Source: Candidatus Giovannonibacteria bacterium
GTDB taxonomy: Bacteria; Patescibacteriota; Minisyncoccia; JACPKW01; UBA11713
NCBI GenBank assembly: GCA_016186825.1
Contig: JACPKW010000004.1
Span: 130,237 to 194,236, forward strand
DNA length: 64,000 bases
Reading direction: 5' to 3'
The notes under the pieces were generated by a model. That model did no database searches and was not told where the DNA came from. It was given only the letters and a program-made list of their open reading frames with translations. Of the stretch, positions 6,272-34,215 are shown in pieces (the stretch's first letter is position 1; each line of letters begins with the position of its first letter). The position numbers and the translations under genes were made by a program.

Positions 6272-6309
6272 ACTTGCTTTTAAAAATTTTCTATGCTTAA
6301 CTTTTATTT

Positions 6310-6978: not shown

Positions 6979-7018
6979 CGAAAAAACAAAATTTCATCGA
7001 ATTTGCTATAATAAAGCA

Positions 7019-8386: not shown

Positions 8387-8471
8387 GGAAGATAAAAATA
8401 CTTACAATCTGATAAACCTTAATACTCCCTTATAAAAAAATCTCAACTTTTTTGTTTTTATGAATTAAAAA

Positions 8472-8512
8472 AGCCCGAGAAGCAGTTAATATTTAGCTTT
8501 CGGGCTGTTTTT
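8472..8512 (+). terminator. rho-independent terminator after the transglycosylase gene
   Basis: AGCCCGAGAAG ... CTTTCGGGCT hairpin followed by GTTTTT. Confidence 0.5.
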
Positions 8513-8799
8513 CCCTCCTATTACGATTCCTCCTTTATTGGGAGAAAAGAACAATAATTTGGAAAGAACTACAGCCGTAATATCAATATAATTATGATTT
8601 AAAATCTGCTTTTTAGCAATAAAAATTTATCCACACTGGCAAGCTCAAATATAATGTAGAATTTAAATAGCTGGTGGGGTTAGTTCTAAAGTGGGAGAAA
8701 AGACAAAAACCGCACCAAAAATCTAAAGCTAGTTTTTATGAGTAGGCTTTCGAGGCCTATTTTTGTTTTGTATCAAATTTTATTGGTTTAATCATTTTT

Positions 8800-11700
8800 A
8801 TGAAAAAATATTTTCTCCCAGTCCTCTTGCTTTCTCTAATGCTCAATGCAACGGGAATGCAGTCAGCAAAAGCCGCGAGCTTGGAAAATTCCGATATTTC
8901 GGAATCACTTTTCGAATTGAATACGGTTCTTGAGTCGATTAAGGAAACGTTAAATAATTTTGCCGCACCTTCTGCCGAAGGCGAGGGATCTGTCCTAGGC
9001 GCGAGCACTGTCTATACATCGCAAAAAGCGACGAGCGCTTTCAGATTGGGGTATAACAATAATTATTCCTATTTAGTTCAGACATTCAGAGTTAATGCTG
9101 ATTCGAATCTTTCTTCCGTTTCTCTCGCACTCGCTCGCCGTGGCCTACCTACGGCGCCGATTCAATTAATTATCTCGGAACCTTACCGTTTAGGCGAAGT
9201 TGTGAATCAAACATTTTTACCTCAAGACTTGCCGACAACTTATCTAAAACCTAAATGGGTGGATGTCTCAATTGAAAAACCTGCTTTACTGAAAGCCGGA
9301 AAAGAATATCTGCTTTGGCTCAAATATAGCGATTACAATCTAAGAGGGAACAATCCGAATTATTACTTTTGGTCAGTTAATACTTCGAATCCTTATAAAG
9401 ACGGATCGATACTTACTCCGTTCAAGAGTTATCCTAAATATGATTTTCTCGCCGGATTTAATTTTTCAGGCGCACAGCCAATAGCAGTTACTTCTCCGAG
9501 TGGCGGAGAAAAATGGCTTGGAAGTCCGAAAACTACTGATACTTTAAGCGGGAATGAAATATACACTCAATACATAAAATGGACTGGCGCTCCTGATGAT
9601 TTTAGATCTATTTATGAAGGCAGAGTAAAAGCGTTTCTCGAAAAATACGAAAACGGCAAATTTATAACTGTTGGAAGAATTCCGCCTTTCGCGGCAGGCT
9701 CTATCGCATGGGTTGTCGGAGTTGTAAGCAAAGAGAATTGCGCCGAAATAAATGGAGTGGATGCAGATGGATGCTTTAATAGCGAAAATATCTTTGTTGC
9801 TCCGTCGGGAAGATATTATGTTCGCATTATAGATACAGAAACCAATATCTGGAGCAGGAGTAATGAGTTTAGCATTGTCGGAGAGACTTCCGAGGCTGTA
9901 AAAATTACTTCTGGAATTCAGCCACAAGCAACGCTTGCTCCAAGAAATTCCGTTGTTCCCTTCACAGTGATAAAAGTATCAACCTCGAAAGAAGTCAGCT
10001 TGGGAGAAATGACGGTTGAACGAACCGGACTTTCTTCCGACGGAGGCTTCAAGGAAATTGTTCTAATTGCAAATTCTGGCGTTGATAAAAACAATATCAA
10101 TAGAATTATCGCGGCAGGAACTATTGATCCCGTAACGCACCGCGCGCGTTTGCTTCCGATAAATGCGCCCAAAATCAATGGTGAAGCTCAATTCACAGTT
10201 GCGGGAGTTATGAATGACAACTTGTCGAAATATGCCGGAGAAGTGGCATACCTTTCAGTTACAGGTGCGACGTTTAGCTCGGGTGCAGTGGAATCAATTT
10301 ATTTTCCGATTACCGGAACCGCGCAAACGTTAAATGACTCGTTAACGATAGGCAGTGCGAAGATAACTTCTGATACCACGCCGTGGGTTTTATCGGCATC
10401 AAGCGTAGAGGAGCTGCTTTTAACCAAGGCAATCATAAAATTTGCGGGCGATTCAATAACTGTGGGCGGAGCTAAATATGCTTGCGAACCTTTCAGTTAC
10501 AATCTAACCATTTCAGCCTGCAATTTTGGAAACGGCATAATAATCAGCAAGGGAACTGGCGTAGCGATAACTCCGGCTTCGTCTGATGCAAGACTGCTTG
10601 CGATGAGGGAGTTTGAAATGTCCGGCAAAACATATGGATACAGAATAATTCCGGGTCAAGTTTTCGCAGGAACGGGCTCTGCCTTAGCAGTCCGCCCTTC
10701 AAAATTATTTTCTGCGCAAAATGTTATCTCCGGCGCAATGAATGCTAAACTTGGGAGCTTTGATTTGGACGCTTCGAATTCAACAGGCGAAGTTAAAATA
10801 AACACGGTAAAAGTTAGACTAACTACATCCTCAAATCTGAATCCGAATCAACTCAATAGCCTGCAATTATACGACGGAGATACTCCGATAGTTTGGGGAA
10901 GCAATACGGTTAATCCGGCAGGCACGCAAGATTCAGATGATATTTTTCTTACTTTCAACTTAAATCAGCCGCTTTCGATTAAGGCCGGAACGACTAAAAC
11001 AATTGATGTTCGCGGGAATGTCGGAACCGGAACGCAGAACGGTGACAATTTGCGTTTTGACTTCGAAAATATAGCTGACGGCGATTGGAATGTCATTGAC
11101 GCCGCGAGCGGGAACGAGATTGTTGAGGATCTTGATACGGCTACTTTCGGTTCCATAATCACTATCGTAACTTCGGGAAAAGTTTCAGAACAAATTGATT
11201 TGACAAGCCCTGTCTCAAAAAATATTCCGGCAGGTTCTGCAAGTGTTGAAGTTTTGAGGTTGCGCCTGAGCGCTTTGGATGAAGACGTAAAAATTACTAA
11301 TTTGAATGTGGCAATTGATTCGCCGGGTGATTTTTCTGCAGTCAGCTTATACGATGGCTCCGTTTTGGTTGGGCAAAAAACTTTCCCGTCGTCGAATTTG
11401 GTTCAAATCTATCTTTCTGAACCCTTTGTTGTCCCATCAAATAACTCCAAGGTCATATCAGTTCGAGTTGATGTATTGCCACAAGCGGGAGTCGGGCATA
11501 TTTTCTCGGTGTGGACGACGACGGATCCGGGTAAAGGCGTAGGACTTGTAAGCGGTAATGAAATTAAGATTTCATTAACCGGAAATGTGACAAGCGGGTC
11601 ACAGATGAAAATCGCTTCTGCAGGAGGAGAACTAAGTGGCGGAGGCGGGGGAGGTCCGGTAAATACAACCGATCTCGTTTCCAACTGGAAATTTGACGGA

Positions 11701-12381
11701 GGTACGGGCGATTCGGCGGGCACAAACAACGGTACGCTTATGAATGGGGCAAAAATCATTGATGACGGGAAAGTTGGGAAAGCTGTCTTTTTTGACGGGT
11801 CAGACGACCACGTATCAATCCCGAACGCGGCGTCTCTGATGCTCGACAAATACACGATCTCTTTCTGGTTCAGGCCGGTTGGGAACATAAATGAGTATGA
11901 TTCTTACTCTCATGTTTTTCTAGGAAAAGGCTCGAACAACACGCTCGGAACCGCTAACCGCGATGGACGCTTTGAAATTCGCGGACCTTTGCCGCGAGCA
12001 TATTCTTCATCAGCTAACTGGATTTCCGGAACATGGTATTTCGCGACGCTTTCTTTTGACGGAAGCTTACACCGCTTATATATAAACGGGAAAGAAGAGG
12101 GAAGCGCGGCAGGAAGCTATTCTTTGCTCGCAAATGACAATAAATTGACAATCGGAGGCGATCCGCAGCTTTTCTCCTGGTTTAACGGCGCGATCGATGA
12201 AGTAAAAATACATAACCGCGCGCTTTCTGCGGCAGAAATTTCCGCGCTTTATATGAGCAGCGCAGCTACTGCTTTGGAAAACAAATCTTCAACGGGAAGC
12301 AATCAGGTAGCGAGTTTGATAAGCGGCCTTGAAAAAGTTACTTCCTCGATTCTCGGATTTATAAAAAACCTTTCGCGATAA
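8800..12381 (+). CDS. large secreted protein (1193 aa) with classical signal peptide and C-terminal LamG (concanavalin-A-like) domain
   Basis: Signal peptide MKKYFLPVLLLSLMLNATGMQSAKA. The C-terminal LVSNWKFDGGTGDSAGTNNGT...GAIDEVKIHNRALSAAEISALY matches Laminin_G_3-type jelly rolls. Confidence 0.8.
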   Translation: MKKYFLPVLLLSLMLNATGMQSAKAASLENSDISESLFELNTVLESIKETLNNFAAPSAEGEGSVLGASTVYTSQKATSAFRLGYNNNYSYLVQTFRVNADSNLSSVSLALARRGLPTAPIQLIISEPYRLGEVVNQTFLPQDLPTTYLKPKWVDVSIEKPALLKAGKEYLLWLKYSDYNLRGNNPNYYFWSVNTSNPYKDGSILTPFKSYPKYDFLAGFNFSGAQPIAVTSPSGGEKWLGSPKTTDTLSGNEIYTQYIKWTGAPDDFRSIYEGRVKAFLEKYENGKFITVGRIPPFAAGSIAWVVGVVSKENCAEINGVDADGCFNSENIFVAPSGRYYVRIIDTETNIWSRSNEFSIVGETSEAVKITSGIQPQATLAPRNSVVPFTVIKVSTSKEVSLGEMTVERTGLSSDGGFKEIVLIANSGVDKNNINRIIAAGTIDPVTHRARLLPINAPKINGEAQFTVAGVMNDNLSKYAGEVAYLSVTGATFSSGAVESIYFPITGTAQTLNDSLTIGSAKITSDTTPWVLSASSVEELLLTKAIIKFAGDSITVGGAKYACEPFSYNLTISACNFGNGIIISKGTGVAITPASSDARLLAMREFEMSGKTYGYRIIPGQVFAGTGSALAVRPSKLFSAQNVISGAMNAKLGSFDLDASNSTGEVKINTVKVRLTTSSNLNPNQLNSLQLYDGDTPIVWGSNTVNPAGTQDSDDIFLTFNLNQPLSIKAGTTKTIDVRGNVGTGTQNGDNLRFDFENIADGDWNVIDAASGNEIVEDLDTATFGSIITIVTSGKVSEQIDLTSPVSKNIPAGSASVEVLRLRLSALDEDVKITNLNVAIDSPGDFSAVSLYDGSVLVGQKTFPSSNLVQIYLSEPFVVPSNNSKVISVRVDVLPQAGVGHIFSVWTTTDPGKGVGLVSGNEIKISLTGNVTSGSQMKIASAGGELSGGGGGGPVNTTDLVSNWKFDGGTGDSAGTNNGTLMNGAKIIDDGKVGKAVFFDGSDDHVSIPNAASLMLDKYTISFWFRPVGNINEYDSYSHVFLGKGSNNTLGTANRDGRFEIRGPLPRAYSSSANWISGTWYFATLSFDGSLHRLYINGKEEGSAAGSYSLLANDNKLTIGGDPQLFSWFNGAIDEVKIHNRALSAAEISALYMSSAATALENKSSTGSNQVASLISGLEKVTSSILGFIKNLSR

Positions 12382-12386
12382 ATTTT

Positions 12387-12881
12387 ATGGAAGATTTGAG
12401 CGGCCAAAAAGTTTTGTTAAAAGACATTATGACAAAAAAAGTTGTTGCAGTCAGTCCGGAAACTTCGCTTATTGAAGCCGCTCGAATTCTTTCTGAAAAG
12501 AAATTTTCAGGAATGCCAGTTATTGATAAAAAAAACAAACTTGTTGGGATTCTCACCGAATACGATCTGATCAGCAAAGAAGATTTATTGCACCTCCCGA
12601 CTTTTCAGAAAATTCTTGAGAATCTCGCGGTTTACCGCAAAAATCGCCATGAAATTTCTGCAGAGATAAAACAAGTCTCGCGCTTGAAAGTGAAAGATGT
12701 GATGAATGACGATCCTTTGACTCTTCAAGAAAATGCGACGCTTGAAAGCACAGTTAGGACATTCAAAGATCATCATCGCGTAAATCCCATTCCGGTCCTT
12801 GATCAAAACAAAAAAGTGGTCGGAGTTATCAGCCGTTTTGATTTAATAAAACCTCTTTATGCGAAGACTATCCGCGCGTAG
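12387..12881 (+). CDS. CBS-domain pair protein
   Basis: Two CBS repeats: IMTKKVVAVSPETSLIEAARIL ... GMPVID and VMNDDPLTLQENATLESTVRTF ... IPVLD. Confidence 0.8.
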   Translation: MEDLSGQKVLLKDIMTKKVVAVSPETSLIEAARILSEKKFSGMPVIDKKNKLVGILTEYDLISKEDLLHLPTFQKILENLAVYRKNRHEISAEIKQVSRLKVKDVMNDDPLTLQENATLESTVRTFKDHHRVNPIPVLDQNKKVVGVISRFDLIKPLYAKTIRA

Positions 12882-15800
12882 CAGGACTAAAGCGAAAAGT
12901 TCGGATCTCATTGTCGCCGATGCCTTTCAGGCACTTCAAGAAGAATATGTTGTAATCGGAAAGGACCGCGTTCGTTCGTGGGATGCTTGGCTTACGTTAG
13001 GATTCATTGTCGGAATCTCTGCAACTCTAATTTTTGTATCGAATAGGGGAGGGGAATTTGAGAAATCGAGCGCTTTCGAGGACTGGTTCCCGGAGGATAT
13101 GAACTTTTATGATATGAGCGATATCAATACTTCTTGGCTCGCAACGCAGCCAATAGTTCAAAGTGGAAATTATTTCTATCAGGATATTGCAAACAGCTTT
13201 AATTACGACGAAGTTGGATCGAATGATTTTTTTGACAGTCTTCGTGATACGATTACTGATTTTAGTTTAGACGTGAATTTAGAACAATATGTCAGAAATC
13301 TTCAAGACGAAGAATTTGAAAGTTTTCAAGATGATGCCGAGAATTATTTGAAATTTTTTGGAGTGTCAGAGAAGGAAATAGATGTAATTAATAATGAATT
13401 TTATTTCATTTCTCCCGAAGCGAGGGCGAAATTTGAATCGGAATTAAGCATTACTGATGATCCTAATGGCGATTTATTAATAGCAATGAATAATGCGCGC
13501 GCGGAAGAACTCGCTCGAGAATTTGACTTGTTATACGGTTCTGCCCAAAAAAGAATTTCCAAATTTTTTCCTAATATCGCGATTGGGTTCGATGATTCGA
13601 TACATAATGTTAGGAAAGAAGCTTTTTTTGACGCGCTTGAATATATTTTGGTCAAATCCGGAGATGTAATGATGCAGAATGCGGATTTAAAAATTTTAGT
13701 TGTTGGAGAGCAGGAATATCTCGACATCCTAAAAATCGGGCGGAATAGTTTGGCTGGTTTGCCAGATGGGTTGACTGTTGTCAATGCTGTTGATGCATCG
13801 AAAAAAGTTTTTGGTAGTGAGTATAAGTACGGCATGATAATCTGCACGGATTGTTTAGATATGAAAGGTGAAGCTTTCGGGGAAGATTCTTTTTCGCACA
13901 TACTTGCCCACGAGCTAAAACATGTATCTGATTTCGAGAGAAAAGGTGTTTTTCTTGATTCAGATGATAGAAAATTATTTGAAGAGTGTAAGTTGTTAGG
14001 TGGGGGCTGTTTTGCGACCGCTTACGCATCTTCTAAGGAGACTGAAATGGGTCCAGAAAATTTTGCGTGCGAAATTGTTGGCGCTCCATTTTGCACGAAA
14101 ATGGAAAATATTAGCGGATCCTTGCCTGTATTGCAAAATTTTTCTAAGCAGTATGAAAAATTAATCCGCGACGGAGCATTGAACGTTTCTGCTGGAGGCG
14201 ACGATGTTATTTTAAATAATGATTTTGGCGTCAGTCCTTTTAACCTTGCAGTTACCGATGGCGAAAATTTCAAGTCATTGCTTTCCGCAATAGACAGAAA
14301 GTTAACCACGGTTGCAGGCAACAATGCGAACTTATCTTTAAGCGAGACAGTTGAAATGACTAGAAATTTAGCTGGCGCTGCTGCAGACGTGGCGGAAATT
14401 GCTCACCTTGACGCTAGAGTTTCTATTGCGCGAAAAGATGAAGCTGACGAAAAAGCGGAGGAGTCTCTTGCTATTATTTCTGAGCTTGATTCTTACGCTC
14501 CCGTTCTTGCGTCGGGCAAGCGCGTGCTAGACGCGATCAGAAACGGGAGCATATCTGCTTATGAGATCTCGGAAATACTTTTGAAGGCCTCGATCGGAAG
14601 CAGCAAGTTGAAGTCTTTACAGCCAACAAAGACTAAAGTAAATATAACATCTCAGCCTAGTAAAAAATATTTGTCGTTTGAAACATTATTGTCCAAAGGA
14701 ATGGAAGTGATAGCAAACGAACTCACTGCTACAGTTTTGACTAAGCAAGACAAAGATCTTATTAGCGCGTTGGCTGCTACGAGAGTTAAAGCGCTTGAAG
14801 AAGCGGGGACGGTCGGAGATAAAGGGATGATTAATGCGAAAAAAGCGCTCGATCTCGCAAATCCAAAGACAGTAGATCCTTTGATGGAGCAAGCCAATGA
14901 CGCCTTAAACGCTGCGAGAGGTGCGGCGCATGCGAAAGGCACGGTCGCGGCGAATGAAGCATTCGTCCGCGCGCAGAGTGAATACAATAACGCGCTGCGC
15001 GCTTCAAATACCTTAAAATCCACCGTTGGCGGAAGCATTCGTGAAAGCGTCGGGTTTTATTCAAGAAGTAATGTTTTGCCTGCCGCGATTACAAAAGTTA
15101 AAAGCTACACTTCTTCAAAATCACCGCTCAAAAAAGCTTTGAGCGATTTTGCTTCGAAAGTCGAGGCCGCCCAAAAAGCGGAAATGGAGAAATTATCTGC
15201 CGCAAACGAGATGCTTGCATCCGCGAGAGGCGAGATAGAAAACGCTAAAGCGCGCGGAACATTTGGCAGCACAGCCGAGGCGCAGCTGAAAACGGGCGCT
15301 GAAAAAATCCAGCGCGCGCTAAATCATCTGGCCGGCAAAGCTCCCGCAAAACAGTATGCAAAAGAGCCCGCCTACTTAAAAACTGTCGCTTTCAAAAAGG
15401 CGATCAAAGCTTTGAACACTTCGAAAAAGAATGTCGATGCTAATCTAAAAAAAATTAAGTATCCCGAAAAGAAAATTGACCTGGTGCAGGATGTCAGGGA
15501 TTACGCTTACATTATTAAAAATGAGCTCGCGGATGCTGAAAGAGAAACTCAAAATCTGAAAAACGCGATTCAAAATATAAAAGCTATCACCAATGGAATT
15601 AATACGGGCCAGGCGGCCGGAACTCTGCCATCGGACGAATCTGTTTCAAATAACACAAATACGCAGTCTAACGTAATTATACAAAACAAGATAACGACGG
15701 AAATTACTTCTTTTACAGTGGACAAAGACAGGATTAATTCTGGCGAGGTCGCAACATTCATCATTTCCGGAGCTGATAATTCCCAGCTTGCATTTGCTCT

Positions 15801-16683
15801 TTCCTGCCCTGAGGGAGTCTCTGCTAAATCTGCTTCAAATTCTGAAATCTGCAACACGGCGGTTACTCTTCCTATCGGAACAAAACAATATTCTCTTATA
15901 TTTACGAATCCACATAATTCAGAAGCCGGAATTGCGGCGGTTCTTAAAATTACGGATGCGAGCGTTTCTATAACTTTGACGAGAACGCTGAAAGTAATTG
16001 CTACGCAAAGCGCTTCAGCTTCGATAATCTGTTCGGCTGTAAACGGGCTTCTCGCCCAATTTAAATTCGACGCAAACTCTGCTGCAGATTCTTCCTGCAG
16101 TAACAATAATGGGCAAGTTATCGGAGGTTCCTTCGCGGACGGGAAAACTAATTTTGGGAAAGCCTTGATCTTGAATGGTTCGGGCCAATACGTAAATATT
16201 CCGGACTCTTCTTTGCTCGACGCCTCGCAAATAACTATTTCTGCTTGGATTAAAACAACTGCAACAGCGGGAACAATCGCAGACCGCTTTCTATTAATAA
16301 ACAACAAAGGCTACGGCTGGAGACTGGGCTTGCAGGAAATTAGTGATAAACCCGGCAAAGCGACAATTTTTGGAACTATCTATATAAATGGAGATAACCA
16401 CAACCCTTGGCCGTATGGGCAAGGGCCGGTTATTAATGACGGAAACTGGCATCACGTTGCAATGACTTCAAACGGCTCTCAAGGAACTTGGTATGTTGAC
16501 GGCATTTTCACTACAAATCAAGGCAACCCTTTCGGAACTGGAAATATAAACGATGTAAACGCGCCTTTAACAATCGGAAAAGGTGAGACCGGATTTTTCA
16601 ACGGCTTGATTGATGATGTCCGCCTTTATAACCGCGCGCTTTCGTGGGGTGAGATTAATAATTTATTTCGCGAATCACAATAA
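12859..16683 (+). CDS. giant membrane-anchored surface protein (1274 aa): conserved N-terminal anchor module, HExxH region, Ala/Lys-rich helical stalk, C-terminal LamG domain
   Basis: N-terminus EEYVVIGKDRVRSWDAWLTLGFIVGISATLIFVSNRGGEFE is shared with the next three genes. HELKH occurs at ~aa 350. The C-terminus LLAQFKFDANSAADSS...GLIDDVRLYNRALSWGEINNLF is LamG-like. Confidence 0.8.
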   Translation: MRRLSARSRTKAKSSDLIVADAFQALQEEYVVIGKDRVRSWDAWLTLGFIVGISATLIFVSNRGGEFEKSSAFEDWFPEDMNFYDMSDINTSWLATQPIVQSGNYFYQDIANSFNYDEVGSNDFFDSLRDTITDFSLDVNLEQYVRNLQDEEFESFQDDAENYLKFFGVSEKEIDVINNEFYFISPEARAKFESELSITDDPNGDLLIAMNNARAEELAREFDLLYGSAQKRISKFFPNIAIGFDDSIHNVRKEAFFDALEYILVKSGDVMMQNADLKILVVGEQEYLDILKIGRNSLAGLPDGLTVVNAVDASKKVFGSEYKYGMIICTDCLDMKGEAFGEDSFSHILAHELKHVSDFERKGVFLDSDDRKLFEECKLLGGGCFATAYASSKETEMGPENFACEIVGAPFCTKMENISGSLPVLQNFSKQYEKLIRDGALNVSAGGDDVILNNDFGVSPFNLAVTDGENFKSLLSAIDRKLTTVAGNNANLSLSETVEMTRNLAGAAADVAEIAHLDARVSIARKDEADEKAEESLAIISELDSYAPVLASGKRVLDAIRNGSISAYEISEILLKASIGSSKLKSLQPTKTKVNITSQPSKKYLSFETLLSKGMEVIANELTATVLTKQDKDLISALAATRVKALEEAGTVGDKGMINAKKALDLANPKTVDPLMEQANDALNAARGAAHAKGTVAANEAFVRAQSEYNNALRASNTLKSTVGGSIRESVGFYSRSNVLPAAITKVKSYTSSKSPLKKALSDFASKVEAAQKAEMEKLSAANEMLASARGEIENAKARGTFGSTAEAQLKTGAEKIQRALNHLAGKAPAKQYAKEPAYLKTVAFKKAIKALNTSKKNVDANLKKIKYPEKKIDLVQDVRDYAYIIKNELADAERETQNLKNAIQNIKAITNGINTGQAAGTLPSDESVSNNTNTQSNVIIQNKITTEITSFTVDKDRINSGEVATFIISGADNSQLAFALSCPEGVSAKSASNSEICNTAVTLPIGTKQYSLIFTNPHNSEAGIAAVLKITDASVSITLTRTLKVIATQSASASIICSAVNGLLAQFKFDANSAADSSCSNNNGQVIGGSFADGKTNFGKALILNGSGQYVNIPDSSLLDASQITISAWIKTTATAGTIADRFLLINNKGYGWRLGLQEISDKPGKATIFGTIYINGDNHNPWPYGQGPVINDGNWHHVAMTSNGSQGTWYVDGIFTTNQGNPFGTGNINDVNAPLTIGKGETGFFNGLIDDVRLYNRALSWGEINNLFRESQ

Positions 16684-16692
16684 TTTAAAAAA

Positions 16693-19530
16693 ATGCCTGC
16701 GATGAAAAAAGAAACAGAATTATTGATTTCAAAAACTTTCCGAGCGCTCGAAAAGGAATACGTTGTGATTGGAAAAACTAGAGTGCGTTCGTGGGATGCT
16801 TGGCTCGTTGTCGGCCTCTTTGCAGGTTTTTTAATTGCCATTCTTTTTATAGCCAATAAGGATGGAGGATTTGAAAGTTCCGATGCCGCTGATGTTGCCG
16901 CGGCAAGAGAAAATATTCTCGTAATCGGTAAACGGGCTTTGTATGGCTATCACCTGGGCTCTTCTTCCGCCACAAAAAATCTTGCACAATCATTTATTGC
17001 GCCGAGCAGGCCGATAAACGGAGTGAACCTATTTTTCGCTAAAAGAGGCAGTCCAACTTACCCGGTTAAAGTTTCAATTAAATCATCTCTTTCACTGTCC
17101 GAAGATATTGTAAGCACAGTCATAACTCCCTCTATTTCATCAACTAACCATAGAGTTCCGAACGCGGTCGATGTCACATTTCCAAGCCAAGTAAGTCTAG
17201 CTCCCGGCTCGATATACTTTCTTACGCTCGCCGTTGAAGATGAAAATCTAAATGCAAGAAATTATTATTTGTTGTCTGCAGATACAAATTCATATCCGAA
17301 CGGGTCGCTTTACATAGTAAATAGACGAGCGAGTGCAGATGCACGTGTAAATTTTTACGCTATTGCTAACGTGCCGCCTGCGCAAGCCACGTCGTTTCCG
17401 GAACCTCCCAAAGACACAACCGCACCGTCTGTTTCTATTTTGACGCCCTCCGGCGGCTCAGCTGTAGCTGGCAATGTCTCCGTCCAAATTTCCGCTTCGG
17501 ACAATCTGGGAATCAGCAAGGTGGAATTGCTGAAAGACGGAGTTTTGTTCAAAGTATTCACATCCGCGCCGTATTCTTATCTTTGGAATACCGCCGGCGA
17601 TACAAATTCTTCCCATACTTTACTGGCAAGGGCTTACGACTCCGCCGGAAATTTTTCTGTATCGAATAGCGTGAGCGTTATTCTTAATAATCTTCCTGCC
17701 CAGACCACCCCAATAATTTCCTCCCTTTCAAGCGAACCAGACTTATTGGCTCACTACTCTTTTGATGAAGGCGTAGGAACAGAAGCAAAAGATTTTACAG
17801 GCAAAAATAAATCAGGGATTTTAATTGGAAGTCCGAATTGGGTGCAGGGGATTACCGGCTCGTCTTCAGATAAAGCTTTGCTTTTTAACGGAAAAACTGA
17901 TTATGTTTCAATTCCAAATTCGGCGTTTCTAACTAAAAATCACCCGCTCACAATTTCTTTTTGGTTTAAACCGGCAAAAAAAATTAGTTCCGATGATCCC
18001 GAAAGCCACATAATATTTGGAAAAAGTGTATATGACAAAATTGGGTTTGCAAATAGCGATGGAAGACTGGAAATAGGAAACCCTCCAGACCGCTTAAACT
18101 CTGTCAACAATTTATGGGAATCTGAAAAATGGTATTTTTTAGCTTATTCGGTTGATAGTTCCGGCGCAAGGTTATCCATAAACGGTGCAGAAACTGACAG
18201 TTCACCCTCCATAACTAACTCCATTCTTTCAGGAAACAATGATCTGGCTATTGGAGGCGGTTTTAGCAATGGATTTAACGGGGCTATTGATGAAGTGAAA
18301 ATTTTTGGAAAAGCTCTTTCGCAGTCCGAAATTAAGGAAATTTATAATAAAACGCCGCAGATGCATAATATAATTTCCTACGGGGCTATTCCGGATGATT
18401 TGCTTCCCGACCATGCGGCTATACAAGCTGCAATTGACGACGCGGCAATCAAAGGAGGAGGCATTGTTTTTGTTCCAAAAGGGACGTTCATAATTGGAGA
18501 CAAAGTTCTGCTGAAGAATAATATTTCTTTATTGGGAGACGGCTGGGAAAGTATTTTAAAATCACAGGATGGCAGAAGCGGTCCGAATGTAACGATGGTG
18601 ACGTGGATAAAAAATTATACATATACGGAACCGGGGCTAAGTAATGTTACGGTTAAAAATTTACAAATGGACGGGAATAAAGAGAACCAGGGCGTGTCTA
18701 TTGGGGGCAAAAAGGATATTTCGGGGAGCGTTCTTCTTTTGGCTGGCGATAATCTTATTGTTGAAAATAATTATATTCATGATTCCGTGGATTCGTGCAT
18801 AGGAACAGGAAAGATTCAAGATAAATATGGAGCGGGGAAAAACTTATTGATTAAAAATAACAAACTTGAGAGATGCGGTTTTGACCCTTATAGAAAAGCC
18901 GATGGGCAGTGGTGGGGCGGTATCGGCATTACAAGCGGAGAACATATTGTAATTGAGAATAATACGATCAGCGAAAGTATTTCTTTCGCAATAGTTTTGG
19001 AGCCTAACAATTCATACCCGGGTTGGATTATTCGCGATGCGCTTATAACAAAAAATAATGTTACCGATGGTTCTATTGCAGTTAACAGTCACAACCTGCC
19101 CTTTATTGTCGTGGACGATATTAGAATCATCAACAATACGCTGGACAATTCACGCTCCTATTCTGTTGGTATTAGAGTTGAAAATCAAACAAAAAGCGTT
19201 TTGATCAAAGATAATATTTTAACCGGCCCTAAATTATATAGCGCTGTTGTAGGATTACAAAAAACTAATGGAGTAAAAGTAATCAATAATAAAATCCATC
19301 AAACTTCTCAATATTACGATCCAAATATTGAATATCTTACGGATCTTGTCGGTATATTAATCTACGATACATCTAATTCTGAGATCCTAGGTAATAATTT
19401 TTCCCATGAACCTTCAGATGAATTTGTCAGCGGACCGGGCATAAAAGTAAAAGGAACGTCTGCAAATAATATGTTTGCAGAGAATATATTTTCTGACTCT
19501 ATTCGCAGGCCATATGAATTCAATAATTAA
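16693..19530 (+). CDS. membrane-anchored surface protein (945 aa): N-terminal anchor module, Ig-like domain, LamG domain, C-terminal right-handed beta-helix (pectate-lyase-3-like) domain
   Basis: KEYVVIGKTRVRSWDAWLVVGLFAG anchor. Ig-like APSVSILTPSGG...LWNT. LamG LLAHYSFDEGVGTEAKD...GAIDEVKIFGKALSQSEIKEIY. YGAIPDDLLPDHAAIQAAIDDAAIKGGGIVFVPKGTFII plus repeated NN-x-I-x-x-S turns indicate a beta-helix. Confidence 0.8.
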   Translation: MPAMKKETELLISKTFRALEKEYVVIGKTRVRSWDAWLVVGLFAGFLIAILFIANKDGGFESSDAADVAAARENILVIGKRALYGYHLGSSSATKNLAQSFIAPSRPINGVNLFFAKRGSPTYPVKVSIKSSLSLSEDIVSTVITPSISSTNHRVPNAVDVTFPSQVSLAPGSIYFLTLAVEDENLNARNYYLLSADTNSYPNGSLYIVNRRASADARVNFYAIANVPPAQATSFPEPPKDTTAPSVSILTPSGGSAVAGNVSVQISASDNLGISKVELLKDGVLFKVFTSAPYSYLWNTAGDTNSSHTLLARAYDSAGNFSVSNSVSVILNNLPAQTTPIISSLSSEPDLLAHYSFDEGVGTEAKDFTGKNKSGILIGSPNWVQGITGSSSDKALLFNGKTDYVSIPNSAFLTKNHPLTISFWFKPAKKISSDDPESHIIFGKSVYDKIGFANSDGRLEIGNPPDRLNSVNNLWESEKWYFLAYSVDSSGARLSINGAETDSSPSITNSILSGNNDLAIGGGFSNGFNGAIDEVKIFGKALSQSEIKEIYNKTPQMHNIISYGAIPDDLLPDHAAIQAAIDDAAIKGGGIVFVPKGTFIIGDKVLLKNNISLLGDGWESILKSQDGRSGPNVTMVTWIKNYTYTEPGLSNVTVKNLQMDGNKENQGVSIGGKKDISGSVLLLAGDNLIVENNYIHDSVDSCIGTGKIQDKYGAGKNLLIKNNKLERCGFDPYRKADGQWWGGIGITSGEHIVIENNTISESISFAIVLEPNNSYPGWIIRDALITKNNVTDGSIAVNSHNLPFIVVDDIRIINNTLDNSRSYSVGIRVENQTKSVLIKDNILTGPKLYSAVVGLQKTNGVKVINNKIHQTSQYYDPNIEYLTDLVGILIYDTSNSEILGNNFSHEPSDEFVSGPGIKVKGTSANNMFAENIFSDSIRRPYEFNN

Positions 19531-19563
19531 TTATTTATAAGATGTTTTAATTTTTTAAGGACA

Positions 19564-21441
19564 ATGAAAAAAGGAAAAAATAGTTCGGAGTTAGTATCAA
19601 GAACGTTTAAAAAGCTTCAGAGAGATTATCTCGTTATCGGAAAAGAACGGGTGCACTCATGGGATGCCTGGCTTGCCATCGGTTTTATTGCGGGAGTTTT
19701 AGCGGCCGTTATTGTAATTTCAAACCGGAGCGGAGAATTTGATACTTCAGTTGCGGCGATCGAAGAATCGGCGGCAGTGTCAAGCTATTTCCCCGGGCGG
19801 ATTTTGGTGAAGTTCAAAGAAGGTGTCTCGGACGCCGAACAGGGGAGGCTTTTGAAAAGCTGGGGTCTCGCTAAGAAAAGTGAAGTTAAACAAATAAAAG
19901 TTAAAATCCTGAATGTTCCAGAGGGGGCAGAAGAAGTTTTAGTCCAAGCGCTTTTACACAATCCAAAAGTTGAGTATGCAGAACTTGATGGGATTCTTAA
20001 GCCGGAGCTTGTGCCAAACGACCCGTATTACTCAAGCGAGTGGCACCTTTCGAAAATCGGTTCTGAATCAGCATGGGATGTGACGCAGGGGCAGGCCTCT
20101 GTAGTCATTGCAATTTTGGATAGCGGAGTAGACGGAGGTCATCCGGATCTTTTGTCTAAGTTGGTTGCCGGTTACAACTTTTACAGCAATAACACGGATA
20201 CTTTCGATGTTTATGGTCACGGGACTAAAGTAGCGGGTGTCGCCGCCGCGGTCAGCAATAATGGTTTAGGCGTTGCGTCGCCAGCTTGGATAAATAAAAT
20301 AATGCCCATCAGGGTGTCGGATGCTTCTGGTTATGCATATTATTCAACAATTTCAAGTGGCATAACTTGGGCTGCAGATAACGGTGCAAAAGTAATGAAT
20401 GTGAGTTTCGGGGGTGTTGCGGGGAGTTATTCCATTACAAATGCGGCCAATTACGCAAAAAGCAAGGGGGCGCTTGTGGTAGCGGCGGCTGGAAATTGCA
20501 GCTGTTTTGACGGGACGCCGGAGAATACTTCAATGATTTCCGTTTCAGCAACAGACTGGAGCGATGCCTCAGCATATTGGTCAAGTGTTGGAAATTATGT
20601 GGATGTTTCTGCGCCCGGCACAGCAATATATACAACTACAGCAGGGGGAGGATATGAAGCTCCTTATGGAACTTCGTTTTCGAGCCCGCTTACGGCCGGC
20701 GTTATTGCATTAATGTTTTCAGCGAATGCTGATTTGACTCCCGCTGACGCGGAAGCAATTTTAGAATCAACCGCGCTTGATTTGGGATCATCCGGTTATG
20801 ATTCCTCATTCGGCTGGGGCAGGATAAATGCCGCTGCTGCAGTAGCAAGTGCCGCGAATAATGCTCCGCCGCCCGATATTTCAGCTCCGACAACCTACAT
20901 AACATCGCCCGCAGACGGCTCAACTGTTTCCGGAACAGTTTCTGTAACAATTTCTGCTTCTGACAACAATGCTGTTTTGAAAGTTGAGCTCTGGAAAGAC
21001 GGAACACTTTTTGCATCAGACACGTCATCTCCCTATTCTTTTTCGTGGAATACCTTTAATGAAGTCAACGGGTTGCATACTTTACAATCTCTGGCATACG
21101 ACGGCGCCGGCAATGTCGGGTATTCCGGGTTAGTGAATGTAAATGTAGATAATGTTGCTGACAGCATCGCTCCAAGCGTATCTATAAATTCGCCTCTCGA
21201 AAATTCTAAATTGCCATCCAGAGGAAACGTAAATATTTCTGTTTCCGCTAGCGATAGTGTCGGTGTTACGCAAATTGATATTCTCTTCGACGGGGTTTTG
21301 AGGAAGTCCTGCTATGACATAAATTCCTGTTTTTACAAATTAAATACAAATAAAATTTCTGCCGGAGCGCATACAATTTTGGCTAGGGCTTACGATCAAG
21401 CGGAAAATACCGGCTCGGCAGAAGTTAATGTAACCAAATAG
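19564..21441 (+). CDS. membrane-anchored subtilisin-like (S8) serine protease with I9-like propeptide and two C-terminal Ig-like domains
   Basis: RDYLVIGKERVHSWDAWLAIGFIAG anchor. Catalytic Asp in AILDSGVD, His in YGHGTKVAG, Ser in GTSFSSPLTAG. Ig-like repeats are homologous to those in 16693..19530. Confidence 0.85.
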   Translation: MKKGKNSSELVSRTFKKLQRDYLVIGKERVHSWDAWLAIGFIAGVLAAVIVISNRSGEFDTSVAAIEESAAVSSYFPGRILVKFKEGVSDAEQGRLLKSWGLAKKSEVKQIKVKILNVPEGAEEVLVQALLHNPKVEYAELDGILKPELVPNDPYYSSEWHLSKIGSESAWDVTQGQASVVIAILDSGVDGGHPDLLSKLVAGYNFYSNNTDTFDVYGHGTKVAGVAAAVSNNGLGVASPAWINKIMPIRVSDASGYAYYSTISSGITWAADNGAKVMNVSFGGVAGSYSITNAANYAKSKGALVVAAAGNCSCFDGTPENTSMISVSATDWSDASAYWSSVGNYVDVSAPGTAIYTTTAGGGYEAPYGTSFSSPLTAGVIALMFSANADLTPADAEAILESTALDLGSSGYDSSFGWGRINAAAAVASAANNAPPPDISAPTTYITSPADGSTVSGTVSVTISASDNNAVLKVELWKDGTLFASDTSSPYSFSWNTFNEVNGLHTLQSLAYDGAGNVGYSGLVNVNVDNVADSIAPSVSINSPLENSKLPSRGNVNISVSASDSVGVTQIDILFDGVLRKSCYDINSCFYKLNTNKISAGAHTILARAYDQAENTGSAEVNVTK

Positions 21442-21458
21442 AATTTAAATTTGCATCC

Positions 21459-24400
21459 ATGATTCAAAACTTCCAAAATCCAGAACAGGCGAAAATTGAA
21501 ACAGGTATCTTGAAAAAAGATCTGTTTTCAATCGGAACCAAGCGCGTTCATCCACATCGTGCTTGGAGTTTTATCGCAGTTGCGGTAATGATTTTTTCAG
21601 TGGCGATAACTGCGGCGGGAATTCCAACGATCGATGAAATAACTTATGCGGACGGTATTATTCCGGAAGGAAGCGGACTTAAAGTTCACTGGAAATTTGA
21701 TGAGGGGACGGGAACGACTGCGGCTGATTCATCCGGCAATAACGTAAATGCGTCGCTACTCAACGGCGCAACATTTTCTGCAAGCGGAAAAGTCGGAGGA
21801 GCTTTGAGTTTGGATGGAGTTGATGACTACGCATTAGGAGATAGTGGACAATGGTCGGGAGCATTCACAATTTCACTATGGGTAAAACCGAGCTCGGCTA
21901 GTAACGAAGGTGGAGGAGTATTTGCTTCTTCAAATAACTGGGTTCAAGCAAACACTTTTGAAATTTCAACTGGCGGTAATGGTTGCTATGGTGCTTACAG
22001 ATTTGAAGCTTATGGTAACGGAGGAGGTGGAATCCGAGGCTGTATGGGCGTTTATGGAGCAAACACTTGGACGATGTTGACTGCAACATTCGATGGAAAT
22101 AGAAACGCCATACAGAGCGGAAGTACTGCCAGCATAAAACTTTATAGGAACGGGCAATTTATTGGTTTTGCTGATGGATATCAACAGTTTTCAGGACTTT
22201 TTACCACATATAAATTGGGCCGCGATCGCGGAGGAGAGGTTAATAAATCAAATTATTTTTTCAAAGGCGACCTTGACGAAGTTAGAATTTACAATCGCGC
22301 ACTCTCGACTCAAGAAGTTTTGGATATTTATAATTCGGATAGCGGAACACCCTCTCCGCCTCCTGCGCCGGATACTACTGCGCCGACTGTTCCGTCAGGA
22401 CTTTCTGCTTCAACAATTTCATCTTCACAGATTAATTTATCATGGAGTGCATCGACAGACGCAGTTGGCGTTACAGGATACAAGATATATAGAGGCGGAG
22501 TACAAATTGCAACCTCAAACACAATTTCATATTCTGATACCGGACTTACTGCTTCTACATTATATTCATACACTGTTGCCGCATACGATGCGGCGGGAAA
22601 TACATCGGCGCAGTCTTCAAGCGCTAGCGCAACGACGCAGGCTTCCTCTCCAACTCCTACGCCAGATACAACAGCTCCTTCAGTCCCCACAGGGCTTAGC
22701 GCTACTGCAGTTTCTTCTTCACAAATTAATCTCTCTTGGACTGCTTCTACGGACGCTGTAGGCGTAACCGGATACAAGATATATAGAAGCGGAACGCAGA
22801 TTGCTACATCAAACACAACTACATATTCAAATATAGAGCTTTCTGCATCTACTTTATATTCCTACACTGTTGCTGCTTATGACGCGGCGGGAAATACATC
22901 GGCGCAGTCGGGAAGTGCGAGCGCGACAACACAAGCTTTTGTTCCATCAACTTATTCCGTCTGTGTCCCAAGAGGAACAGTTGATCCGACTTATCGTTGG
23001 GATAAATTAAATATTTATAAAGATGCAAACGGGCTCGAACATCCAACGGCTTCAAGTTACACTTTTTTAAAAACAGATCAAACCAGCCAGATCGCCATTG
23101 ATACTGCAAGAAATGTCCAAGTCGCTTTCATTAGCGGCGTAACAATGGAAGCGCCTGTAGGAACAGAAAATTGGACAGTAGTGCAAACACAAACTTGCCC
23201 ATCTGCGCGCTGGGCAGGAGCGATGGCTTATGATTCTTTAAATAAAGAAATGGTGCTTTTCGGCGGAACGCTTTCTATTGCGGGTCCAACAAACGACACT
23301 TGGATTTATAATACTGTAAGCCGCGACTGGACAAAGCTTGATCCCGGATCCGCAAGTCTTCGCGATCTGCGCGCAAAAGTTGCTTTAATCGGCGAAAATT
23401 TAGAAACACTTCGTTGGAATTTATGGAAAACTTTGGAATGGAAAACTACTGGAAAAACAGGCGCGATGAGCGAGTCCGCTTTGAACTCCGATCTTTCTCA
23501 AATTAAAATAAATGTTTCAATTGCAAGTGACTTAGCTTCTATTCAGTCAACAACTATCACAGACACTTATGAAAAATCACAAGTAACCGGAGTAAGCACT
23601 TGGCTTATAAGCGCTGAAACTAAACTTGCGAGCATCGGAAGCGGAATTTCCGGCGGAACTTTAGCTGGGCTTGAAACAGATTACCGCTCAATTATTTCAT
23701 TACAGAATGATATCGCAAGCGCAAAATATGCAGTTAATGCGGGGCCGACATCAAGATATTTCATTAGTTTAAATTACGATGCTTCCCAGAACGGTTTTAC
23801 AATCGCAAGTACGGTTGGTGCGAGTTATAGTGAAAATTGGCTTTATTCTTTAGCAAGAAAGCGCTGGGAAAGGAGCAATCCCATAATTGGATCTGCAACA
23901 ACTTTATCGCAGCCAACCGGAGAATTTGTTCTTCGCGACAATGCTACAGTCTCAAATCTTCAGAGCTGGAAAACATCAACAGATAATTGGAAAAATTCTA
24001 TTCAACCAAATACATGGATGATCGCTCCAACTAACGGCACAGGACGTCCAAATTGGGGGCGCACTTGGAGTTCTATTGTTTACGATCCTGATCGCCAGCA
24101 AATTTATTACCGCGACGGGGGGCATGGAAGTTATCATGGAAGTGTAACGGATCACTACGACATATTAACTGGACGCTGGTTTAGAAGCGACTGGGCATCA
24201 GCGCCCGACTCAAGAATCATAGGTTCTTATTTCGGCTGGGGACGCGATTACAACTATGCTCCTTGGGCTATTCACAATTACAAGAGATCGCTTTTTTATA
24301 ATCCCTTCACTGAAAGCCTCAATAGATATGTTATTTTTGGACCAGATGCGGCGGGAGGAATGAATGACTATAATCCTGATCAAGGTAAATGGTCTAAGGA

Positions 24401-27400
24401 TATATTGACTTCAGTTCCCTCGAATGTACCTGCCGTGCCTGATGGATTTATATTTGTTGACGGTTGGGAAAGGTATAGTTCTAGACCGACTACAAAAGTT
24501 TATTATACAACCTCAACAGGGATGAAAATTTGGGATGATACGGGCAGGTTGCCTTATCCAGTTGATTTCGACGTAGTTCTTTCGCTCTTTTTTAATCCCA
24601 CAACAAAAAAACTTTATTATTATGGCGGAAGCGATGCAGAATTGGGAGTTTATTCATTAGATCTTTCTCTTGCCAATCCGCGCTGGGCAAAGCTTTCAGC
24701 TACAGTTCGCGGAGGTGGATCGCTACCCTTTCCCAGTCGGGAAGTTACATACATTCCAAAATACAATGTTTTTTTAATGCTTGAAGGCTGGTCTGATTAT
24801 AATGACACGCGCCCTCCTCAAGTTTGGGTTTTTGATCCAAATATTAACGAGTGGTCAAAAATGAATATGTCCTATGGATCAGGAGTTATAGTTGGGCAAT
24901 ATCCTGGAAATCTAAATCCGATGGGAATTTCTAGCGGACTTGCATATGATAATATCAACGACCTCGCATTTTACATAACCGGAACTGGGCAAGGAGGCAC
25001 TCCCTCGCTTTTTACATTTCGGTACGCTCCTTCCGATTTAACAGCGCCGAGCGCGCCAACAAATCTTTCGGCAACTCCCGCTTCCGATACTCAAATAAAT
25101 TTGGCATGGAGCGCATCATCGGATTCTGAATCGGGAATTTTGAAATATAATGTTTTTCGCAATGGCACGCTTGTTGCGAGCCCAAACACAAATTCATATT
25201 CCGACACCGGGCTTATCGGCGGAACTTCATACACATACCAAGTTTCCGCAGTCAACGGAGTTTTGCTTGAGTCTGCAAAAAGCGCTTCTGTATCGCAATC
25301 TACTTTTACGGATATTTCCCCTCCAACCATTGTTTCGGCCGCAGCTTCCGATTCTAGTTCCGTTTCTGTTATTTTCAGCGAACCTGTTGAACAAATAAGC
25401 GCGACACAAATTTCAAATTATGGAATTAGTAACGGCATAACGATTTCTTCTGCTTCGCTTGGCGCTGACCTAAAAACTGTTACTCTATCGGTCTCTTCTT
25501 TAACAGCGGGTACAAGTTACGTTTTAACGGTCAGCAACGTAAAAGACCGCGCTTCTCTTCCGAATACAATTTTGGCTAATTCGCAAACAAGTTTTACGTT
25601 TACATCTGGACTCGTAGCGCATTGGAAATTTGATGAAGGAGCGGGTTTTGTAGCCAGCGACTCATCAGGAAGCAACAACACTGGTAACATCAGCGCGGCA
25701 ACTTGGACTTCCGGAAAAATAGGGCAAGCCTTAAGCTTTGACGGATCAAGCAGTTACGTTGACTTTGGAAATCCATCCTCACTAAAAATTACCGGAAGCC
25801 AGACAATCTCAATATGGCTTTACCCTACCGACTTTTCACAAAGGAGAAATCCAATTTCGAAAGCTTATGGCGGCGAAGGAACCATTACAGTTGAAACGGA
25901 CGGAACTGTTAATTATTTCTACGGCACCTGCGGTGGGGATTGCACCCCTTATCAAGGGTTTACAATGACAAGCGCTCTTACGGCAAATAGTTGGACGAAC
26001 TTAGTTCTTGTCCGCGATTTAAGCGCGATGAAACTACGATGGTACAAAAACAGTGTTTTAATTAACGAGTCAACCGCAAATTACTCAAGTGCCGTAGCTT
26101 CAGCAAGTTCATTGCTTGTTGGCAAAGGTTACGTTTATAATTTCGCAGGAAATATTGATGATATAAGAATTTATAATCGCGCTTTAAGCATCGCAGAAGT
26201 GCAAAGTATTTATACAAGCGTGCCTGCGCCGGTGCCTGATACCATAGCGCCTTCGGTTCCAGCTGGTCTTACAGCAACTGCGATTTCGTCTTCCCAAATA
26301 AATCTTTCGTGGGCCGCTTCCACGGATAATGTTGCGGTAACAGGTTACAAAATTTACAGGGGAGGAGTACAAATTGCAACTTCAAACACAACTTCGTATT
26401 CAAATATTGGGCTTACTGCTTCTACATTATATTCCTACACTGTTGCAGCCTATGATGCGGCTGGGAATACTTCTGGACAGTCGGGGAGTGCGAGCGCTAC
26501 AACATTAGCCGTGGGACAAGTTGATATTACATCGGGGCTAGTTGGACATTGGAAGCTGGATGAAACTTCCGGAATATCCGCAGCGGATTCTTCAGGAAAT
26601 AGTAATAATGGCACCATTTCAAATGGTCCTCTTTGGGCATCTGGAAAAATAAATGGGGCACTAAAAATGGATGGTGTTGATGATTATGTTACAGTTTCAA
26701 ACTCGGCAAATTTAAATCCCGCAGTAATTACTTTATCAGCGTGGATTAATCCTGCGACAATCGCGCAAGAACAGAAGCCAATTATTTTAAAATCTTACAC
26801 TTCGCATGTCTCGCCTTACTATCAGTATTATTTGTTTTGGTATAATACTGCTACTTACCCGAATACTATTGCATTTGGCATAAACGTTAACGGTTCTTTG
26901 GCTGGCGCCGCTAAATCCAATGCTTTTACTCCGCCGGGATGGCATTTGGTAACAGGGACTTTTGACGGAAGCGCCTCAAAACTTTACGTCGATGGCGTTG
27001 AAGCAAGTTCGGCTAATGTTTCAGGATCTTTGACTAGTTACCCAACAGAATTACATTTCGGTCGATATAGAAATATTGCTACCGATTCAATTCATAATTT
27101 CGCGGGTTCAATTGATGATATTAGAATTTATAATCGAGCGTTAACAGCGGCCGACGTTCAGGCGCTCTATGCTACAGCTCCTCCGCCCGCATACACGTTC
27201 TCACTTTCAAACGGCGGAACAAAAAGCATAGTTCAAGGTTCGTTTATTTCAAATTCAATCACGGCAACTCTTTCTTCGGGAATTGGACAACCAATAACAT
27301 TTTCGGCTTCTGGTCTTCCGCAAGGCGCAAGCCATAGTTTTAGTTCAACAAGTTGCACGCCGACATGCGCGACAAATCTAACTATCAGCACGACGGCAAC

Positions 27401-33958: not shown

Positions 33959-34215
33959 TATTTTCCGGTTTGTGATTTCTTGCGGGCTTTCTTTGCGCTG
34001 GAAGGCTCGGTACTGGCTTTTGCCTGCCTGGCTTTGAATTTTTCAACTCGTCCGGCAGTGTCAATAAGCTTCGCCTTGCCGGTATAAAAAGGATGGCAAT
34101 TGGAGCAAATTTCAATTTCAATTTTTTCTTTAGTGGATCCAACTTTTATAACATTTCCGCAAGCGCATTTTATTTGAGCGTTAGGAAAATATTGAGGATG
34201 CGTATCTGTTTTCAT
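33958..34215 (-). CDS. rpmE: ribosomal protein L31
   Basis: MKTDTHPQY...CACGN...[10 protein letters not shown] is the L31 zinc-ribbon pattern. Confidence 0.85.

Follow-up and report, generated by a model that had tools for sequence, protein, structure and literature searches.

Three adjacent genes in a 64,000-nucleotide (nt) stretch of contig JACPKW010000004.1 (assembly GCA_016186825.1, positions 130,237 to 194,236; hereafter the window), from a Candidatus Giovannonibacteria bacterium, encode proteins that begin with the same module of 58–60 residues, which we refer to as the leader. The leader defines a real, widespread and apparently undescribed family: it is strongly conserved, is held by purifying selection, is always N-terminal and is fused to many unrelated extracellular domains. 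It is almost certain to serve the export of secreted or surface proteins in an N-in/C-out orientation and, judged from its sequence, is probably a lineage-specific extended Sec signal peptide of Parcubacteria that would be cleaved after an invariant alanine. It appears to function like the YSIRK, KxYKxGKxW and ESPR class of N-terminal signals, yet belongs to none of them.

A first-pass annotation, made from the sequence of the window alone, had noticed a shared N-terminal block in four adjacent open reading frames (ORFs). The leader copies in these ORFs are as follows (HMM, hidden Markov model).

12898..13074, + strand: leader of ORF 12859, residues 14–72 (profile match over residues 14–74, 111.5 bits)
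16717..16887, + strand: leader of ORF 16693, residues 9–65 (profile match, 112 bits; AlphaFold2 model)
19582..19755, + strand: leader of ORF 19564, residues 7–64, predicted cleavage A64↓A65 (HMM, 88.9 bits)
21501..21617, + strand: degenerate leader of ORF 21459, residues 15–53 (HMM, 15.4 bits; hhalign, 93.7%)

The N-termini of ORFs 12859, 16693 and 19564 align without a gap over 59 residues, with 22 of the 59 columns invariant, and share the block F(Q/R/K)(A/K)L..(E/D)Y(V/L)VIGK.RV(R/H)SWDAWL followed by 17–18 hydrophobic residues and N(R/K)..G(E/G)F(E/D).S.A. An HMM built from unrelated database members finds all three at 85–89 bits (E 1e-25 to 8e-27), and the translations, the alignment and the HMM together bear out the shared module for these genes. 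In ORF 12859 the cytoplasmic helix and hairpin extend up to W44, the transmembrane (TM) segment spans L45–S61, the outside motif spans N62–A72 and cleavage is predicted at A72↓F73; the corresponding elements of ORF 16693 are a hairpin at Y23–R32, a TM segment at W37–A54, an outside motif at N55–A65 and predicted cleavage at A65↓A66. ORF 21459 is a weak, partial member (HMM, E 8e-4; hhalign, E 1.9e-7 over 32 columns). Of the shared features, the L.K.D..(S)IG.KRVH...AW block on the cytoplasmic side and a TM segment are retained, and both the glycine pattern described below and the NRSGEF..S.A motif have been lost; its description as a divergent form of the module stands for the cytoplasmic half and the TM segment only. 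A six-frame motif scan of the whole 64 kb recovered the copies in ORFs 12859, 16693 and 19564 and none elsewhere.

The leader extends far beyond this locus. An exhaustive profile search of 1.84 billion protein cluster representatives returned 362 protein clusters at a threshold of E<=1e-3, of which 158 reach E<=1e-10. In 149 of the 150 best members the match begins within the first 50 residues and lies within about the first 100. The remaining one (P0010, 1745 amino acids (aa)) was rejected as a false positive in which 29 internal partial matches add up to 86 bits; its repeat unit, QYVVLSKT.NPHCYSWLSWEMN-like and present in 29 copies, partially matches positions 14–34 of the leader profile. 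The members vary in size from fragments up to proteins of 1386 aa (median length, 328 aa), and the leader is therefore not specific to giant proteins. The same holds in the window, where the four genes had been described as encoding adjacent giant proteins: they are adjacent, but only one of the four products (3913 aa) is truly giant. Word-indexed protein searches are nearly blind to so short a leader, and gave a single match, to a Portnoybacteria fragment, and elsewhere seven short fragments. The named sources of the members are Giovannonibacteria, Portnoybacteria, Sungbacteria, the 'Parcubacteria group', the 'Patescibacteria group' and one metagenome-assembled genome labelled Saccharibacteria.

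A logo derived from 149 members gives the consensus LVERALxALKK(E/D)(Y/F)VVVGKTRVRSWHAW, then LxIGLAAGIxAGIxFVA, then NRSGEFEx(S/G)xA↓A, with G20 (145/149), W30 (144/149), G38 (148/149) and A58 (135/136) as the most constrained columns. The n-region consists of ∼32 conserved cytoplasmic residues that form an amphipathic helix (LVERALxALKK) and a basic β-hairpin ((Y/F)VVVGKTRVRSW). Within the 10 residues before the TM helix, the counts of basic residues are K 109/149, R 118/149 and R/K/H 122/149, as is characteristic of the basic n-region of a Sec signal. The h-region is an uninterrupted hydrophobic core of 17–18 uncharged residues, from −28 to −12 relative to the predicted cleavage site; h-regions typically contain 7–15 residues, so that this one is longer than usual, yet within the range seen in Gram-positive bacteria. 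A small residue recurs at every fourth TM position, with G at −25 in 110/132 members, G at −21 in 130/132 and G, A or T at −17 (G in 89/132). The TM helix is followed by an 11-residue extracytoplasmic coil, NRSGEFEx(S/G)xA. An AlphaFold2 model computed from a 37-sequence alignment (predicted local distance difference test score, 72.7) contains a helix at residues 3–22, a β-hairpin at 23–26/29–32 (YVVI-GK-TRVR), a 24-residue helix at 33–56 and then a coil across the NRSGEF-equivalent residues.

Information content is 2–4 bits per column along the leader and falls to 0.3–0.6 bits from +2 onward; conservation ends exactly at the invariant Ala. Two statements of the first-pass annotation have to be revised in this light. 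Conservation is not confined to the cytoplasmic stretch before the TM helix, as had been proposed, but runs through the helix and is equally strong in the 11 residues after it. The argument that a charged block ahead of the helix distinguishes the module from a standard Sec signal is also faulty, because a basic n-region in front of the hydrophobic core is the standard layout.

The end of the leader has the properties of a processing site. Signal peptidase I follows the established −3/−1 rule and does not accept Pro at +1. Among 136 members, position −3 is occupied by S (78), G (40), A (7), T (6), I (3) or V (2) and by nothing else, position −2 is variable and often charged, and position −1 is Ala in 135. 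Pro is absent from +1 (0/136), compared with 12–26/136 at +3 to +6, and is the commonest residue at +4 to +6 (19–26/136). By the −3/−1 and +1 rules, then, the module ends in a predicted signal peptidase I site. In ORF 19564 a fervidolysin-type subtilase propeptide begins at residue 64, directly at the module end, and the same arrangement is found in the S8 members of the family; since the propeptide starts where the module stops, the module holds the 'pre' position of a pre-pro-subtilase. The neighbouring ORF 8800 carries an ordinary short signal peptide, as had been noted at first pass, and this signal ends in AKA↓A, so that the same kind of site appears to be in use in this genome.

The leader precedes a wide variety of proteins. 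The four window genes that carry it are listed below; two of them have an identical database entry, MBI2609937.1 for ORF 12859 and MBI2609938.1 for ORF 16693, both annotated as 'hypothetical protein' of a Candidatus Giovannonibacteria metagenome-assembled genome and encoded on a contig of 256,829 bp.

12859..16683, + strand: passenger 1, 1274 aa, with a Laminin_G_3 domain at the C-terminus
16693..19530, + strand: passenger 2, 945 aa, with Big_7, Laminin_G_3 and a pectate-lyase-like β-helix
19564..21441, + strand: passenger 3, a 625-aa pre-pro S8 subtilase with one N-pro and two Big_7 domains
21459..33200, + strand: passenger 4, 3913 aa, with fn3, Laminin_G_3, Kelch and two C-terminal PG_binding_1 domains

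Across the family, 74 full-length members carry 62 different Pfam families, none of which covers the leader and none of which is common to all 74. The commonest are Laminin_G_3 (10 members), Peptidase_S8, Big_7 and Kre9_KNH (6 each), and β-helix and CARDB (5 each), with Chitobiase-C, fn3, sulfatase, FG-GAP and dockerin among the rarer ones; all of the passenger domains are typically extracytoplasmic. Among the 79 members of at least 300 aa, another TM-like segment is present in only 5 and a C-terminal one in 1, and none has a convincing LPXTG motif. Unrelated extracytoplasmic passengers combined with an almost complete lack of other TM segments are what characterises a leader for export or sorting that can be moved between proteins, and the 362 clusters with their diverse extracellular domains bear out a module of wide conservation.

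Two features of the passengers deserve mention in their own right. A leader-bearing S8 subtilase lies within the tandem cluster of two distant genomes (window 19564–21441; locus L001, 10001–12505), and could be a maturation protease for the neighbouring proteins. In two other loci the leader and a large passenger are in different frames (L013, 4508–4759 and 4593–7031, with the break inside the TM helix; L066, 8481–8723 and 8659–16479); these splits reflect errors of assembly, or else surface-protein genes that are phase-variable or have become pseudogenes.

The interpretation that we favour, with moderate confidence, is that of an extended and cleaved Sec signal peptide. The K/R residues of the n-region would fix the N-in orientation, the leader would insert through the Sec translocon with its passenger outside, and signal peptidase I would cut after the invariant Ala and free the passenger. 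By analogy with YSIRK-G/S, KxYKxGKxW and ESPR, a further factor may read the conserved n-region and the glycine pattern and so control where, when or how fast export occurs. The helix–hairpin, the glycine face of the TM segment and the NRSGEF motif are conserved far beyond the needs of Sec and signal peptidase I; whether or not the leader is cleaved, it is probably recognised by something else as well. ORF 21459 is consistent with a cleaved leader in that it has lost the c-region motif and has peptidoglycan-binding domains instead.

Several observations weigh against this interpretation. An 18-residue helix followed by an 11-residue charged c-region (R, E, E) is long for a cleaved signal and would also fit a signal anchor. 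The N, R, S, G, F and E of the c-region are conserved beyond what signal peptidase I needs, so that S-x-A could instead belong to a motif with a structural or binding role. No reader of the n-region was found near the leader genes in 68 loci, and there is no signal peptidase gene within the 64-kb window. Finally, the members suggest that the leader is restricted to Parcubacteria/Patescibacteria, a range that is judged from few named sources.

The strongest competing explanation, which we consider less likely, is that the leader is an uncleaved type II signal anchor that tethers its passengers to the cell surface, with the glycine pattern driving helix packing (either oligomerisation or docking to a membrane partner) and the helix–hairpin binding an intracellular partner. 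The leader has a single N-terminal helix in a positive-inside arrangement; its 17–18 hydrophobic residues, modeled as a continuous 24-residue helix, fall within the range of membrane anchors, and the GxxxGxxxG-type pattern is not needed by ordinary signal peptides. The cytoplasmic part also seems too conserved for a throw-away n-region, the members have no other anchor, and retention at the surface would suit the adhesins and enzymes of an episymbiont. An anchor, however, has no need of Ala at −1, a small residue at −3, the exclusion of Pro from +1 or a collapse of conservation at precisely this point, all of which predict processing and argue against retention, and in the subtilase members autoprocessing of the propeptide would free the enzyme regardless. 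The name 'anchor' given to the module at first pass is thus not established: with a full n-h-c organisation and a textbook signal peptidase I site, cleavage is at least as likely.

An explanation to which we assign a still smaller probability, and which is compatible with either a cleaved signal or an anchor, is that the leader is the substrate tag of a dedicated, Parcubacteria-specific sorting or processing machinery, a mirror image of the C-terminal tripartite signals, with a CBS-pair protein as the candidate for a cytoplasmic receptor or gate that would capture the helix–hairpin. Such a protein could gate the export of surface proteins by adenylate or S-adenosylmethionine status, and a membrane protease or assembly factor dedicated to the leader could recognise the glycine-zipper helix and NRSGEF. 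The layout of the leader, with a conserved motif, a TM helix and a charged cytoplasmic block, is tripartite in this sense, and the idea draws further on the gene neighbourhood.

Leader loci were collected from GTDB genomes (12 loci) and metagenomes (48 loci), with further contigs added by protein look-up; the search used a 7-sequence alignment and is biased towards the Giovannonibacteria-like subtype. Neighbouring genes were clustered all-against-all, first for 15 and then for 63 loci. The leader genes mostly occur in tandem runs of one to four (L001 has four, including an S8 subtilase), and the recurring neighbours encode a CBS protein, transketolase, PfkB, aldolase and other large proteins. 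L001 has a Peptidase_C39_2 gene (6243–7031) close upstream of its cluster of four, and this gene is absent from the recurrent neighbours of the other loci. The CBS-pair gene of the window and examples from other loci are as follows.

12387..12881, + strand (window): CBS-pair protein, 164 aa; the 3′-terminal 23 nt are shared with the start of ORF 12859
L005, 7107–7583: CBS-pair gene
L006, 9502–9981: CBS-pair gene
L011, 9498–9971: CBS-pair gene
L014, 609–1115: CBS-pair gene
L065, 8001–8480: CBS-pair gene
L066, 8001–8480: CBS-pair gene
Others are found in further loci.

The CBS-pair family (150–165 aa) is 55–66% identical across Giovannonibacteria, Sungbacteria and other Parcubacteria. Its gene lies directly upstream of the leader genes on the same strand in 30 of the 63 loci, at a gap of −20 to +159 nt, and downstream of or inside the cluster in four more, for a total of 18 of 33 dereplicated groups. 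The stop codon of the CBS gene and the start of the first leader gene often overlap, an arrangement of translational coupling. The linkage outlasts rearrangement, the CBS gene being downstream in L001 and L003 and between leader genes in L029. When four loci were instead picked by their CBS protein, two had an adjacent leader gene; in the third (L063) the neighbour is a large protein whose signal peptide is ordinary, and the fourth (L064) has neither.

The CBS–leader linkage is therefore real in one sublineage. Against a dedicated machinery, it is found in that sublineage only: no CBS gene adjoins the leader genes of the two other sequence subtypes (Portnoybacteria-like and AWAIVGIVFG type), roughly half of all loci are without one and some CBS orthologs, as in L064 and L063, have no leader genes. 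Since the sublineage also conserves a transketolase–CBS–[surface proteins]–PfkB synteny, the linkage may simply be inherited gene order. The first-pass annotation had looked to a co-conserved peptidase or secretion component, and none was found near the genes of the 68 loci, where peptidase, sortase-like and transporter genes do not recur; the window itself contains no sortase gene either. The sole recurrent neighbour to set against that expectation, and the only candidate reader of the leader, albeit a weak one, is the CBS-pair protein. The CBS-adjacent slot also holds large proteins with an ordinary short signal (window 8800–12381; L063, 4944–7742). Because either type of leader can occupy this slot, the locus looks like a hot spot of surface-protein gene exchange.

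We give almost no credence to the possibility that the leader belongs to a described family, be it YSIRK, KxYKxGKxW, ESPR, Tat (twin-arginine translocation), lipoprotein, prepilin, double-glycine or SipW-cognate signals. The likeness to KxYKxGKxW is a loose one, consisting of an aromatic residue, G-K and W near the n/h boundary and, likewise, an occurrence on large surface proteins, whereas no Pfam or NCBIfam model of any of these families matches the leader, which also lacks a twin arginine, a conserved Cys and a G↓F..E ahead of its helix. Searches of Pfam and NCBIfam with the four window N-termini at E<=10, and of NCBIfam with 37 diverse leader modules at E<=1, gave nothing consistent, and the PDB contains no relative. 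Literature searches by topic and with the strings NRSGEF, GKTRVRSW and VGKTRV returned no description of it in the searchable literature. The module was thus rightly reported as matching no described motif, and it is not a known Pfam signal-peptide family.

Individual families were rejected on specific grounds. YSIRK-G/S (PF04650, TIGR01168) matches neither the four window N-termini nor the 37 modules at these thresholds. For KxYKxGKxW (TIGR03715) there is no NCBIfam match and the spacing in the leader is Y-x3-G-K-x5-W. ESPR (PF13018) gives no Pfam match, and the leader contains a single hydrophobic segment with no separate ordinary signal after it. The two Arg of the leader are parted by Val (T-R-V-R-S-W) in 125/149 members and neither Tat model (TIGR01409, PF10518) matches, while a lipoprotein signal processed by signal peptidase II is excluded by the lack of any column with a conserved Cys. 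In type IV pilins and other class III signals (PF07963) the cleavage motif precedes the helix, whereas G-E-F-E of the leader follows it; the N_methyl model does not match the modules and does match the true pilin-like window genes, ORFs 2741 and 63490. A double-glycine leader cut by a C39 peptidase does not fit the hydrophobic spacing, GG is absent and there is no model match. A sortase- or exosortase-type tripartite signal was rejected because the leader is N-terminal in 149 of 150 members, neither LPXTG nor a C-terminal TM tail was found and no sortase-like gene recurs in the 68 loci.

Like YSIRK-G/S, the leader combines a conserved motif at the n/h boundary with what is probably an unusually long Sec signal and occurs on many unrelated large surface proteins of one lineage. 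YSIRK-G/S peptides are cut by ordinary signal peptidase I, and their motif governs the site of secretion. The leader has no sequence kinship with them, is longer (∼58 conserved residues), conserves a TM glycine pattern and 11 post-membrane residues, has no LPXTG partner signal and is found in Parcubacteria. ESPR is likewise a conserved N-terminal extension of very large secreted proteins, the autotransporters and TpsA proteins, and probably modulates translocation rather than targeting itself; in diderm Proteobacteria it is added in front of an otherwise ordinary n-h-c signal, whereas the conserved block of the leader runs on without a break and takes in the h- and c-regions. KxYKxGKxW shares an aromatic/Gly-Lys/Trp motif in a basic n-region, a long signal peptide and large adhesins as passengers, and in serine-rich glycoproteins is tied to specialised export by the accessory Sec system. 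Its spacing (Y-K-x-GK-x-W) differs from that of the leader (Y-x3-GK-x5-W), and no accessory SecA2 or SecY2 genes were seen near the loci. The C-terminal tripartite signals (LPXTG/sortase, PEP-CTERM/exosortase and GlyGly-CTERM/rhombosortase) also join an extracytoplasmic motif, a TM helix and a charged cytoplasmic block and also serve many unrelated passengers within one lineage. The leader differs from them in its N-terminal position and mirrored polarity, in a site of signal peptidase I rather than transpeptidase type, and in that no cognate enzyme was found near the loci.

The idea that the similarity is a functionless by-product of recent tandem duplication or gene conversion, to which the adjacency of the genes and some shared passenger domains (Laminin_G_3, Big_7) might point, is refuted, because the window copies are 52–60% identical as proteins but only 32–42% identical at third codon positions, use the same codon at only 10–14 of 26–30 identical residues, and have relatives attached to unrelated passengers in 362 clusters, which come from several candidate phyla. 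The low third-codon identity at this level of protein identity indicates instead that the copies are old and under purifying selection. The same low DNA similarity led us to reject a recombination cassette, in which a conserved 5′ end would be the site at which passengers are shuffled.

The window is a typical segment of a Candidate Phyla Radiation (CPR)/Patescibacteria chromosome, with small housekeeping genes, type-IV-pilin-like genes and a GC content of ∼42%. The leader genes belong to a run of six genes (8800–33200) that are all on the same strand and tightly packed, with intergenic gaps of −23 to +33 nt. A promoter and terminator scan of 8300–21800 gave signals no higher than background. 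The remaining features of note are as follows.

8800..12381, + strand: first gene of the packed run, encoding a Laminin_G_3 protein of 1193 aa whose signal peptide is short and ordinary (MKKYFLPVLLLSLMLNATGMQSAKA↓A)
33221–33958, − strand: class I peptide chain release factor of only 245 aa, in which the PCRF match starts at profile position 101
33958–34215: ribosomal protein L31 gene, abutting the start of the release factor gene
2741–3406, + strand, and 63490–63945, − strand: two type-IV-pilin-like genes with an N_methyl motif

The Sungbacteria ortholog of the release factor, at the same syntenic position (L063, 14354–15397), is 347 aa long, and in comparison the Giovannonibacteria genome seems to encode a release factor without ∼100 N-terminal residues. 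The N_methyl motif of ORF 2741 lies at residues 54–76, and translation therefore probably begins downstream of the ORF start.

The CPR/Patescibacteria are episymbionts of ultra-small size, most of them uncultured, and their large surface proteins are the presumed tools for host attachment and feeding. The leader, which standard predictors may miss or call a membrane anchor, provides a ready marker with which to catalogue the proteins that Parcubacteria secrete or display at the surface, and it supplies a precise predicted processing site. It is also a handle for finding whatever reads its conserved cytoplasmic and membrane parts, much as earlier conserved sorting signals led to their machinery in the case of the sortases, exosortases, rhombosortase and accessory Sec. 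Even if it were only a long signal peptide, the leader would define a useful family that neither Pfam nor NCBIfam contains.

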